Source: a virus (lineage: Duplodnaviria > Heunggongvirae > Uroviricota > Caudoviricetes). From it: DNA of 35,268 nt. The DNA lies in IMG/VR virus record IMGVR_UViG_2778261214_000028, positions 1-35,268 of that record. The stretch is one strand, 5' to 3'. Position numbers: made by a program. Every line of letters begins with the position of its first letter. The stretch's first letter is position 1. Positions 30,001 to 33,000 of the stretch are shown one piece after another.

Positions 30001-33000
30001 ACAAAAGGCAATTAACGCTCTGACGCAGGGGGCTAAGTCTGATGCGTTGTCAGAATAGCTTTTCAAACACCAGGAACGTGCAAAAACCAAATATGTAGAA
30101 TGCAATATTCATCATATCTCTGTGCATAAATCCTCCGTAACGGATGGTTATCTGCTGTCTTTTTTATATAGCTCCTTGAGCGTATCAAAGACAATTTTCT
30201 TAACCATATCAGATTGTTGTTCTGCCATACGCTCTGCATCGTCAATGTAAACTGATGTAGAGCTTTGTTTATCCAATGATTCTTCAATCGCTGCAATTAT
30301 CTCTGAGTTCAGCGACCTGTTATTCATCTTCGCACGCAGCTTAATTTTCGCGTGGAGTTCATGCGGAAGTCTCAAGTGAAACTGCGCCTCGTCGTATTTG
30401 CTGTACATCCTTGATGCCTCACCAGTTGGGTGGAATGGCATCGTAACCTACTGGATAAATACTCAATAGTACCATTTCGGTATGCAATCACATCATGGTT
30501 GCATCATATCATTCGTCTGGAGCAATGAAATGTCAGATATCACCGCAAATGTTGTGGTAAGCATGCCTTCGCAACTCTTCACTATGGCTCGTTCTTTTAA
30601 AGCCGTAGCCAATGGCAAAATTTATATCGGTAAAATTGACACTGACCCGGTAAATCCAGAAAACCAGATTCAGGTTTATGTGGAAAACGAAGACGGTTCT
30701 CACGTTCCTGTTTCGCAACCAATCATCATTAACGCTGCTGGTTACCCTGTATATAACGGACAGATTGCCAAGTTCGTAACTGTGCAAGGCCATTCTATGG
30801 CTGTTTATGATGCATACGGTGCGCAGCAGTTCTATTTTCCGAATGTGCTAAAGTATGATCCAGATCAGTTTAAGGGCAATCTCCTGAGCGAAGATCACTC
30901 ACTTGGCGACTCTCTAGTCATGCATAACCCACAGTTTGTCGATAGCACATCGACCATTCTCTCAAAAAAGCTAACTATCGACCTGAGGACGCTTACAGAC
31001 TACGGGTTTGCTGAGGGAAACACCGGTGCTCAGAACAAAGCTGCATTTCAGAAGGCTATTGATGATGCTACGTTGCCAACTGAGATTGTTATACCAGAGG
31101 GGGCGTTCATTGTTGACCCTGGTATTACGATTAAGAATACTGTCACCATGATACGAGGTGCTGGCGCATATCAGTCCAGAATTTTCTCTACGGGTACAGC
31201 GGCACCGATAATCACGCAACAAGATGGGGTAATTACGTTCTGCGAGTTCAGGGACTTTGGTCTTGACGGAAATGGCTACGCAGCTAACGGCATCAGTCTT
31301 ACTGAAGCCAACCACATTAAAATAGAAAATATTGACGTGGTTAATACTAATAACAACGCAATATTAGTTAACGGTTACTCCATTGACATCATTGGGTGCC
31401 GGTTGTTTCAAAACGCCGGTAACGGTATTAATGTTGGTGGTTACTGCAATAATATTAATATAATCAACAGCCGTATCTATGGTAACGGAGCCGGTGGAGT
31501 TTTACTTACGCCAGCTTACGCTGAGGGCGGTATGAGCGTCAGAGTTAATGGCAACAATATAGAGCAAAATAAGTTCTACGGACTTTTGGCTTACGGGGTT
31601 AAAGGCCTTAACCTTGATGATAACTATTGGGAACGCAACGGTGAGATTGGTTACCAGTATAGTGTACCTGAGTCTATTACAGTACGTGCGGATATCCACC
31701 TTATCGCGAACAATTTTACATTAATTCCTGACCTTTCAAAAATTAATGATACCGTATCTATTCGCGGGAATCAGCAGACCGCGATTGGCTACGCCAGCGC
31801 GCTACCTAACCAAGACGGATTTATTTTCACGAACTATGCGAAAAACCTGACGATTGAAAATAATCAGTTATTAGACGCATCGAAAGTGAATAATTTATTA
31901 GCAATGTACCACAATAATCTTTCGTCCAAAGTTACTGACAGGCTATATCTTGCCAACAACACAGTGAACTCCATCGGATACGTTGGTAGTTATGACCCGG
32001 CGACACAAAACCCTGACACTGCGCATTTAATAGATATTGCGAACAGAGAGTTAACTGCTAACTATCTTGATCGAAATATGTTGCTCTGGACTGCGGCATC
32101 TGGAACTACAGGAACATTGATAAAAACTCAAAACATCTATGCTGGTAATTATTCATTCTTAGTTACGACAGGAGATAGAGTTTGGGGACGAACGATAGAC
32201 CTCAACAAATCACCAGAACTAAAAGGGAAATTTGTATGGTTTGGTGCGTGGGTCAATGACCAGGGATCAGCGTCAAAACTTATGTTTATAATTAATGGTG
32301 CAGGACAAACAGACTCTACAGCACCTTTAGCTGGTAATGGGAAATGGAGCTATGTTAGTTGTGGTGTGTATATATACGAAACTGATACAGCTATAAATGT
32401 TGGTATAAGAAATTATGGTTCAGGAAATGTACTCATAAACTCACCTTCTCTATGTGCATATGGAATGCCATCAAACGCGTTGCAAGTTGAAAAAACAACA
32501 TTTTATCTTTCGTCAGTACCTACATCCGGTTTCTGGGATATAGGTGAGCGTGTTATCAATAGCGCACCTGCTTCAGGACAACCAAAGGCATGGACATGCA
32601 ATATTCCAGGTGGGCCAGGAACCTATTCTTTCTTATCAGAGGGAAACTTTTAAAAGACCTATGTATTGAAATGATTACTTTGATCTGGTATGTTTAAAAA
32701 AAATCAGTAAAACACATTTTGATATGGAAAGAAAAACAAATAAGTTAGACTCTATTCAAGTCCTTAGAGGGATCGCGGTACTTCTAGTCATTGCGTTTCA
32801 CTTTAGAGTATATTTAAATGGAGTGTATGCCCAAAAGGACTTGGGCGACATTCTTTTTGGTATAGGTGAGGTTGGTGTTGATATATTCTTTGTTATAAGT
32901 GGATTTATCATTACTTATTCTTCAATGAATAAGGCAAAAAACCGGCCAATGGTGTTTGCTGCTAAGCGTTTTTTTAGGTTGTACCCTGTTTACTTTATAA

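Follow-up and report, generated by a model that had tools for sequence, protein, structure and literature searches.

An orphan mnt gene and its predicted operator upstream of a phage tailspike gene

The DNA analysed here is a stretch of 35,268 nucleotides from a virus of the class Caudoviricetes (IMG/VR record IMGVR_UViG_2778261214_000028; hereafter the window). Its minus strand carries an open reading frame of 97 amino acids (30148-30441) that lies between an ejection gene (28061-30058), a homologue of Sf6 gene 13 and P22 gene 16, and the tailspike gene, which starts at 30530 and encodes a Head_binding domain from residue 1 (E 1.8e-67). Two Pfam families match the open reading frame: the Arc ribbon-helix-helix domain (PF03869) at residues 18-60 of the 97, with E 3.8e-14, and Repressor_Mnt (PF11423), with E 3.3e-14. 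Translation from the probable start, the ATG at 30408, gives a protein of 86 amino acids, which matches two solved Mnt structures, 1MNT over residues 6-79 (E 1.6e-19) and 1QEY over residues 56-84 (E 1.6e-8). Both parts typical of the Mnt family are present: an N-terminal Arc-like DNA-binding domain, here a ribbon-helix-helix with the recognition strand QFHLRLP, and the C-terminal Mnt tetramerisation helix, the coiled-coil domain of the family. An earlier note on this DNA had seen a minus-strand repressor of the Mnt/Arc type with the last ejection gene on one side and the tailspike gene on the other, about 120 bp from the tailspike start and without arc or ant; the Pfam and PDB matches and the neighbouring genes confirm this description, the distance from start to start is 121 bp, and neither P22 Arc nor P22 Ant, used as tblastn queries, had a match in the window. 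By sequence, this is a genuine homologue of Mnt, unaccompanied by arc or ant. The features of the locus are listed in Table 1.

Table 1. Features of the mnt gene and the mnt/tailspike control region in the window
Feature	Position	Strand	Basis or remark
mnt-type repressor gene	30148..30408	-	86 aa + stop; Pfam, PDB, starts in relatives, dN/dS
mnt leader	30409..30441	-	Shine-Dalgarno GGTGAGG; in-frame upstream ATG at 30441
Inverted repeat GATGCC ... GGCATC, inner stem CACC/GGTG	30413..30442	.	in mnt leader; inverted-repeat search
Pmnt homologue	30440..30466	-	positional alignment with annotated P22 Pmnt
Predicted Mnt operator AGTACCATTTCGGTATG	30468..30484	.	alignment with P22 operator, conservation
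Inverted repeat ATGCAATCA-N5-TGGTTGCAT of the earlier note	30482..30504	+	in Sf6-type tailspike leader
Start codon (30530) of the tailspike gene with its ribosome-binding site GGAG	30519..30532	+	conserved in relatives

The 97-amino-acid reading is judged unlikely from the starts used in relatives and from phage L: 86 amino acids from the ATG at 30408 are encoded in 85 of the 88 close relatives, NCBI PGAP makes the same call in several genomes, and in phage L the stretch equivalent to the mnt leader is out of frame and contains a stop codon, its DNA nonetheless being conserved. Alignment with P22 places the -10 element of the Pmnt homologue at 30440-30445, so that the transcript would start downstream of 30441, and the upstream ATG is probably not used. 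This promoter consists of TTGAGT (-35, 30466 to 30461), a 15-nt spacer and TACGAT (-10, 30445 to 30440), while the annotated P22 Pmnt is TTGAGA-17-TATCAT and the same position reads TTGTTG-17-TACGAT in VSe13 and TTGTGG-17-TATGAT in phage L. The window copy is weak by consensus and was not called in a consensus scan of the window. In P22 the scan recovered Pant (11/12) and Pmnt (10/12), but at the corresponding positions of the window, Gally and VSe13 it detected neither of them; no convincing promoter was identified by consensus scans at these positions in either direction. A strong Pant overlapped by operators, as in P22, is not seen, since the intergenic region of the window gave no plus-strand match; Pant matches 11 of 12 consensus positions in P22, and its equivalent here is down to about 7 of 12, the best rightward match that could be read by eye. 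The sole scan match near mnt (CTGACA-17-AATGAT, minus strand, 30536-30508) scores 9/12, and shuffled sequences give 1.7 such matches. The inverted repeat in the mnt leader is invariant in an alignment of six loci and nearly invariant across 82 unique upstream regions, phage L having CACTT/AAGTG where the window has the inner stem; the predicted RNA fold of this leader is no better than that of shuffled sequences (z -1.15).

The immI region is the second of P22's immunity regions and comprises mnt, arc, ant and sar. The window shares with it a homologous two-domain Mnt, homologous positions of the operator and Pmnt, and the same slot in the late operon, but it lacks arc and ant, and apparently sar, and differs in operator specificity. 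In P22, arc and ant are divergent from mnt under Pant, whereas here the tailspike gene itself faces mnt. Neither arc nor ant was found in any of the 88 close loci, and a comparison of 29800-30800 with Rfam gave one match at chance level, the arc-ant junction, which encodes sar in P22, being absent. We also considered an ant gene elsewhere in the window. It holds no P22 Ant homologue, and its Rha/anti-repressor-like open reading frame (14867-15421) has no operator match anywhere near; the rha gene of P22 has the same position, after the lysis genes.

The arrangement turned out to be described already and to be common. Villafane et al. (2008, PMC2629481) reported "mnt-only ant morons" in the Salmonella phages L, ST64T and ST104, the paper on the genome of phage L (bioRxiv 10.1101/2020.10.05.325894) likewise describes the arrangement, and the window's mnt allele with this arrangement is present in 277 of 5426 complete E. 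coli genomes (~5%). The window locus is one more example: mnt occupies the slot flanked by the homologues of genes 9 and 16, is read in the direction opposite to the tailspike gene and is accompanied by neither arc nor ant. Taken alone, the finding matters little. The morons of ST64T, ST104 and L occupy the same slot, have mnt divergent from the tailspike gene with a gap of 121-147 bp, lack arc, ant and apparently sar, and carry an operator-like palindrome at the same position. The window moron is different in being minimal, with mnt alone and no second small open reading frame such as orf62, in its operator (GTACCATTTCGGTAT instead of AGACCACNGTGGTCT) and in its tailspike leader, which is of Sf6 type instead of P22 type; furthermore, the Mnt proteins of L and Gally are only 46-57% identical to the window protein and have the recognition strand QFNLR in place of QFHLR. 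The E. coli/Shigella phages IME10 and Sf101 have the same gene order as the window and 94-96% nucleotide identity to it over mnt, the intergenic region and the tailspike start, although the gene at the mnt locus is unannotated in IME10 and the homologue is named "partition protein ATPase" in the RefSeq record of Sf101. Like the window, Sf101 has a serotype-converting O-acetyltransferase gene after the tailspike gene, but on the opposite strand, and its upstream ejection gene is a different one. Sf6, which has no moron between its genes 13 and 14, is homologous to the window up to ~30127 and from ~30497, and has ~55 bp where the window has the ~370-bp mnt cassette.

For the site on which Mnt might act, the earlier note had pointed to the inverted repeat ATGCAA-N11-TTGCAT, with Mnt possibly gating read-through into the tailspike gene. 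The repeat is present exactly at 30482-30504 and is nearly perfect, extending to 9-nt arms (8 of 9 positions complementary) around a 5-nt loop, and in Escherichia sp. E1V33 its place is taken by ATTCAAT-N9-ATTGAAT, with one compensatory change. A role of this repeat as the operator is nevertheless extremely improbable. Such a repeat, with one mismatch allowed, arose in 26 of 100 shuffles of the window and is thus not statistically remarkable alone; only 23 of the 82 unique upstream regions with the window's mnt type hold it; TGCAA-N11-TTGCA, spaced identically, also stands in the tailspike leader of Sf6, a phage without mnt; the half-sites of the repeat are separated by 17 bp, as against one helical turn in the P22 operator; the position homologous to that operator is an adjacent site; and the predicted RNA fold of the tailspike leader is no better than shuffles (z -0.84). 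Where E. coli loci combine the window's mnt allele with a leader of P22 type, similarity to the window ends at ~30484-30487, and homology to Sf6 is solid again from the position given above. By these alignments the repeat belongs to the Sf6-type tailspike leader and not to the mnt cassette, and across the loci compared it shows no linkage to mnt. At the tailspike start, CTGGAGCAA..AAATG is conserved in all relatives and in P22.

The likely Mnt operator is instead the site at 30468-30484. Its columns line up one by one with those of the mnt operator annotated in P22, AGGTCCACGGTGGACCT, and also with the palindrome of phage L, AAGACCACCGTGGTCTT. Its core, TACC-N5-GGTA (30470-30482), whose half-sites are spaced by one turn of the helix, forms the conserved island of the mnt/tailspike intergenic region: 79 of the 82 unique upstream regions retain it, whereas what follows on its right has been exchanged. 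It is also common to alleles from several genera that are only 60% identical in protein. The predicted operator is a poor palindrome, in which only the four inner bases of each half are symmetric; the two-fold symmetry expected of an operator upstream of an mnt gene is therefore present but limited to 4+4 bases. It is a single copy in the 35-kb window, and a search of 247 loci, out to 3 kb from mnt, gave no second copy, by which we rejected a second operator elsewhere. Recognition strand and operator sequence change together across Mnt alleles: HFNFR (P22, Pluralibacter, Pectobacterium) goes with GGTCCAC-G-GTGGACC, QFNLR (L, Gally) with AGACCAC-N-GTGGTCT, and QFHLR (window, VSe13, Escherichia sp. 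E1V33, Serratia, Citrobacter) with GTACC(A/G)TTT(C/A/T)GGTAT. As far as sequence comparison can tell, the window's type of mnt and operator defines a third operator specificity class for Mnt.

The mnt gene is under purifying selection and is not decaying, with a dN/dS of 0.16 overall and 0.11 in the ribbon-helix-helix DNA-binding domain, and the view that the repressor has been retained is upheld by this value. A recent deletion of ant, which had also been suggested, does not fit the data, because the ant-less state occurs in the 277 E. coli genomes and in four genera (Escherichia, Shigella, Salmonella and Citrobacter), and because synonymous divergence is 0.11 within the window's mnt allele and saturated between alleles; the state is thus old and widespread. 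In 46 of 153 non-redundant related loci we found a separate unit, mnt2 with arc2-ant2, with a different recognition strand, and in such loci the tailspike-side mnt stays 121-147 nt from the tailspike start. Because the tailspike-side gene is kept despite this separate unit, the orphan mnt does not appear to be a spare regulator of ant.

The Mnt of a P22 prophage acts in trans on superinfecting genomes. Selection on the cassette might accordingly reflect immunity of this kind, the prophage Mnt silencing the ant promoter of superinfecting relatives with the same operator type and protecting the prophage's own main repressor. This would account for selection on a cassette whose only cis target is its own region, and a 3' fragment of a P22-type ant gene lies beside a cassette of this type in two loci (L151 and L246), implying that the operator type may once have controlled ant. 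We regard the idea as unlikely, however, since the window's operator type was found before arc or ant in none of 94 phage records and none of the 247 fetched loci, which are the best 80 of several hundred matches per scan, so that phages of this kind could be missed. A narrow test with the pattern TACCNTTTNGGTA-N8-38-ATGAAAGG in IMG/VR gave 17 matches, none encoding Arc, Mnt, Ant or tailspike, and the coexisting ant units carry their own, different Mnt-like repressor.

The reading we prefer, with a probability of about one half, is that Mnt and its operator form a functional cassette that is complete in itself and acts on the control region between the divergent mnt and tailspike genes. It would represent the regulatory half of a P22-type immI region, from which the arc-ant cargo is absent and which now stands directly upstream of the tailspike gene. 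A Mnt tetramer would bind the TACC-N5-GGTA site, which lies 1 nt from the -35 element of the Pmnt homologue, on its upstream side, and seems also to occupy the place at which Mnt blocks the Pant start in P22, Pant being the promoter that serves arc and ant there. From this position, binding would set Mnt's own synthesis and, in the lysogen, would restrain transcription that arises within the control region or runs through it toward the tailspike and acyltransferase genes. Both promoters match the consensus poorly, and basal expression is therefore probably low and dependent on conditions. Counting against this reading are the missing scan matches at both promoter positions and the limited symmetry of the predicted operator.

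The weak promoters can also be read in another way, namely that the cassette is a leftover of a decaying immI region with no role, kept by linkage to the boundary of the tailspike module. The authors of the phage L genome paper raised the possibility of a remnant (bioRxiv 10.1101/2020.10.05.325894), and in Gally, an orphan-mnt prophage (locus L006), deletion of mnt gave a viable lysogen without a survival phenotype in macrophages, the gene being at background in LB (PMC9928086). One Citrobacter locus does have a stop at codon 5 together with a mutated operator core. Against decay stand the dN/dS values, lower still in the DNA-binding domain, the conservation of the operator core across divergent alleles and genera, and the maintenance of the cassette in loci that have acquired a second immI unit; moreover, 122 of 129 unique variants have an intact gene together with an intact operator core. 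A remnant is therefore improbable in our view, and the comparison sharpens the question arising from the two papers, whether the orphan mnt has a new role or is a remnant, by showing that gene and operator are conserved together under purifying selectionand keep their place beside the tailspike gene in loci that also have a second, complete antirepressor unit.

Published data on related prophages bear on when a functional cassette might be active. In the mnt-arc-ant prophage Kapi1, mnt was not detectably expressed in culture (PMC12922286), which, like the outcome of the mnt deletion in Gally, speaks against a functional cassette. When Gally was in macrophages, mnt rose 40-fold and the tailspike gene showed a log2 fold change of 4.42 while the upstream injection gene was at background, although three neighbouring genes of unknown function were co-induced (PMC9928086), so that the response could be a regional de-silencing unrelated to Mnt. 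The earlier proposal that Mnt controls transcription of the tailspike region thus has a precedent in Gally as far as transcription independent of the late operon is concerned (PMC9928086), while the repeat as its site is given up. One may speculate, with little confidence, that the cassette is a dedicated switch that serves the prophage's right end without depending on the late operon, and with which Mnt times the tailspike and the O-antigen acyltransferase in the lysogen according to host conditions, for example in macrophages; if so, a lysogen could make free tailspike or change its surface without phage production. The locus offers a short, well-defined fragment with a clear prediction, which is worth testing because the published transcriptome showed orphan mnt and the tailspike gene switched on together in macrophages (PMC9928086).

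Most of a P22-like (Lederbergvirus) prophage is contained in the window, with its genes in the order main repressor, cro-/cII-like, lysis, head, ejection, tailspike and Acyl_transf_3, and the integrase at the end. The earlier note placed a Mnt-type gene without arc or ant between the last ejection gene and the tailspike, together with an inverted repeat; gene, missing partners and repeat were all found as stated, so the observation was correct. The minus-strand ORF 30148-30441 matched Pfam Repressor_Mnt (E 3.3e-14) and Arc (E 3.8e-14) as well as two partial structures of P22 Mnt, 1MNT (E 1.6e-19) and, for the tetramerisation domain, 1QEY (E 1.6e-8), and tblastn with P22 Arc and P22 Ant gave no match anywhere in the window. 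RefSeq phage records often label Mnt "partition protein ATPase" (NC_027398, Sf101 gp14; NC_002371, P22 mnt; NC_011976; NC_014900; others), which looks like a propagated annotation error, and the IME10 record leaves mnt without annotation.

The mnt-only arrangement, already described by Villafane et al. (PMC2629481), is known and common and hence not new, and the locus is a minimal form of this moron. The same layout was confirmed in phage L, in VSe13 and in Gally, the P22-like prophage that E. coli LF82 carries (locus L006 among the relatives): mnt and the tailspike gene point away from each other, 135-146 bp apart, and arc/ant are missing. At the DNA level the window allele shares 96% identity with that of phage IME10 and 94% with that of Sf101, and it was found in 277 of 5426 complete E. 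coli genomes and in at least 80 IMG/VR contigs (94-98% protein identity); arc/ant were present in none of 88 close loci. Sf6, on the other hand, has ~55 bp where the window holds the ~370-bp mnt cassette, homology between the two stopping near 30127 and starting again near 30497. The Sf101 O-acetyltransferase lies on the opposite strand, whereas the window Acyl_transf_3 gene is on the tailspike strand.

Features around mnt in the window and its relatives
Feature	Position	Sequence	Remarks
Last ejection gene	28061-30058		left of mnt
Leader inverted repeat	30413-30418 and 30437-30442	GATGCC/GGCATC	mnt leader
Pmnt equivalent, window	30466 to 30440	TTGAGT-15-TACGAT	by alignment
Tailspike gene	starts 30530		right of mnt
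Acyl_transf_3 gene (380 aa)	32654-33866		same strand as tailspike, 70-bp gap after it
Pmnt equivalent, VSe13		TTGTTG-17-TACGAT	by alignment
Pmnt equivalent, phage L		TTGTGG-17-TATGAT	by alignment
Site, recognition strand HFNFR		GGTCCAC-G-GTGGACC	P22, Pluralibacter, Pectobacterium
Site, recognition strand QFNLR		AGACCAC-N-GTGGTCT	L, Gally
Site, recognition strand QFHLR		GTACC(A/G)TTT(C/A/T)GGTAT	window, VSe13, Escherichia sp. E1V33, Serratia, Citrobacter

We took 30408 as the mnt start, which leaves 121 bp up to the tailspike start. The ATG there is preceded by GGTGAGG and yields 86 aa, and exactly this length follows from the equivalent ATG in 85 of 88 close relatives. From an alternative in-frame ATG at 30441 the reading frame is open in most relatives; the equivalent stretch in phage L, although conserved as DNA, is interrupted by a stop and out of frame, and the -10 of the promoter homologue overlaps this upstream ATG (30440-30445). 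The leader inverted repeat is invariant across window-, VSe13-, L- and Gally-type loci, and its inner stem differs compensatorily (CACC/GGTG in the window, CACTT/AAGTG in L). Its right arm contains the mnt Shine-Dalgarno and its left arm overlaps the -10 element; the RNA fold z-score is only -1.15.

For operator placement, the intergenic regions of the window, IME10, Sf101, VSe13, L and Gally were aligned and compared with the annotated P22 record. In this alignment the window sequence AGTACCATTTCGGTATG (30468-30484) falls on AGGTCCACGGTGGACCT, the mnt operator of P22, and on AAGACCACCGTGGTCTT, a perfect palindrome in L; the motif CAATA precedes the site in all three. Positions 6, 8 and 10 of the Mnt recognition strand carry operator specificity. 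The site varies in step with this strand, and the half-site geometry, cores ten base pairs apart, is common to all three classes; QFHLR is, as far as we could find, a Mnt specificity class without earlier description. Among 82 unique QFHLR-class upstream regions the core TACC-N5-GGTA is kept in 79 and forms a conserved island, the sequence to its right not being conserved, and some variants are better palindromes (e.g. ATACCATTTTGGTAT in locus L030). The motif occurs once in the window (30470-30482), and none of 247 loci (best 80 of several hundred matches per scan) has a second one within 3 kb of mnt. A 184-aa Rha-like/anti-repressor-like ORF follows the lysis genes on the plus strand (14867-15421; PHROG 518, E 5e-80, anti-repressor families weaker), far away from the operator motif.

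The mnt gene is maintained. Over 60 unique coding sequences of the window allele, mean dS was 0.108 and mean dN 0.017 (ratio 0.16), and dN/dS versus the Serratia allele (60% identical) was 0.11. Per-site ratios of non-synonymous to synonymous variants were 0.11 for the ribbon-helix-helix, 1.1 for the linker of ten residues and 0.31 for the C-terminal helix. Gene and operator core are jointly intact in 122 of 129 unique upstream-region/coding-sequence combinations. Codon 24 (30337-30339) specifies Gln in most relatives (KIKQRAK) but Leu in the window (KIKLRAK), a residue shared with just two further unique protein variants. One Citrobacter sp. locus (L014:2866-3252) looks damaged in both gene and site, with a stop at codon 5 and the core mutated to TACT...GGTA.

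A consensus scan finds P22 Pant (TTGACA-17-TATATT, 11/12) and Pmnt (TTGAGA-17-TATCAT, 10/12) at their annotated places, whereas the corresponding positions in the window, Gally and VSe13 give no hit for either; the window Pant equivalent scores ~7/12 by reading of the sequence. Given such poor matches, expression from the mnt/tailspike region is likely low or conditional. In Gally, whose Mnt is 57% identical to that of the window, mnt is at background in LB and rises 40-fold inside macrophages (log2 fold change 5.31), along with the tailspike (4.42) and three flanking small genes (2.55, 3.84, 4.9), while the injection gene just upstream is flat and late structural genes go down (PMC9928086). 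A prophage of this kind can thus have its right end transcribed independently of the late operon. In Kapi1, which has a mnt-arc-ant locus, mnt expression was not detectable in culture (PMC12922286).

Sequence comparison establishes the Mnt family membership, the selection, and the position and co-variation of the operator, and on these grounds the locus is a maintained Mnt repressor-operator cassette. Mnt would bind the predicted operator, autoregulate its own gene and damp transcription that runs rightward into the genes for tailspike and acyltransferase. That the cassette is instead a linked remnant without role seems unlikely in view of the low dN/dS and the joint intactness of gene and operator, although replacing Gally mnt with a kanamycin cassette left the lysogen viable and macrophage survival at the wild-type level (PMC9928086), so that an orphan mnt is not needed for keeping the prophage quiet. 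We give an equally small chance to a Mnt acting in trans as a guard against foreign antirepressors.

The cassette survey covered 153 non-redundant loci with the QFHLR strand, 82 of them minimal like the window, 25 with other cargo and 46 with a separate complete unit between QFHLR mnt and the ejection gene. In these 46 (L112:3270-5567, L129:3282-5973 and 44 more) the second, immI-like unit comprises a different Mnt-like gene, whose recognition strand also differs, together with arc2, ant2 and a 270-aa gene; these three are transcribed away from that Mnt-like gene and towards QFHLR mnt. Because two repressors of different specificity share one moron, we argue that QFHLR mnt is not simply a spare ant regulator. 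It lies 121-147 nt from the tailspike start in all 153 loci, except where a homing-endonuclease gene is inserted in that start. These insertions (L020:2300-3000, L030:2300-3000, L037:2250-3000, L079:2320-3000) are HNH-type ORFs of ~165-180 aa on the opposite strand, placed just after tailspike codon 5 (MSDIT; equivalent to window 30530-30545), and the tailspike has a new start downstream, the old one being left as a stub. In two contigs, L151 and L246, the stretch from the mnt cassette to the tailspike contains the 3' end of a P22-type ant, 110 codons long, together with the ant terminator; the L151 fragment (L151:411-743) corresponds to residues 191-300, is 93% identical and is joined at the repeated block CGTAGCCACGCTGCGGCGAT. 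This fits an origin of the cassette by arc-ant loss long ago, and the recent ant deletion considered in the earlier note was not borne out.

The inverted repeat ATGCAA-N11-TTGCAT, which had been suggested as regulatory, is present exactly at 30482-30504 with arms extending to 9 nt, and by itself could arise by chance: with one mismatch allowed, such a repeat turns up in 26 of 100 shuffled windows. Since it is present in only 23 of 82 unique upstream regions, and since the mnt-less Sf6 carries an equally spaced TGCAA-N11-TTGCA 56 nt ahead of its tailspike start, the repeat is a feature of one tailspike-leader type, demonstrably independent of the mnt cassette. Where E. coli genomes combine the window mnt allele with a P22-type tailspike leader, similarity to the window is lost at ~30484-30487, just right of the operator. 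The window hairpin folds as RNA no better than shuffles. At the same position Escherichia sp. E1V33 has ATTCAAT-N9-ATTGAAT with one compensatory pair, and therefore the hairpin may matter for the tailspike message.
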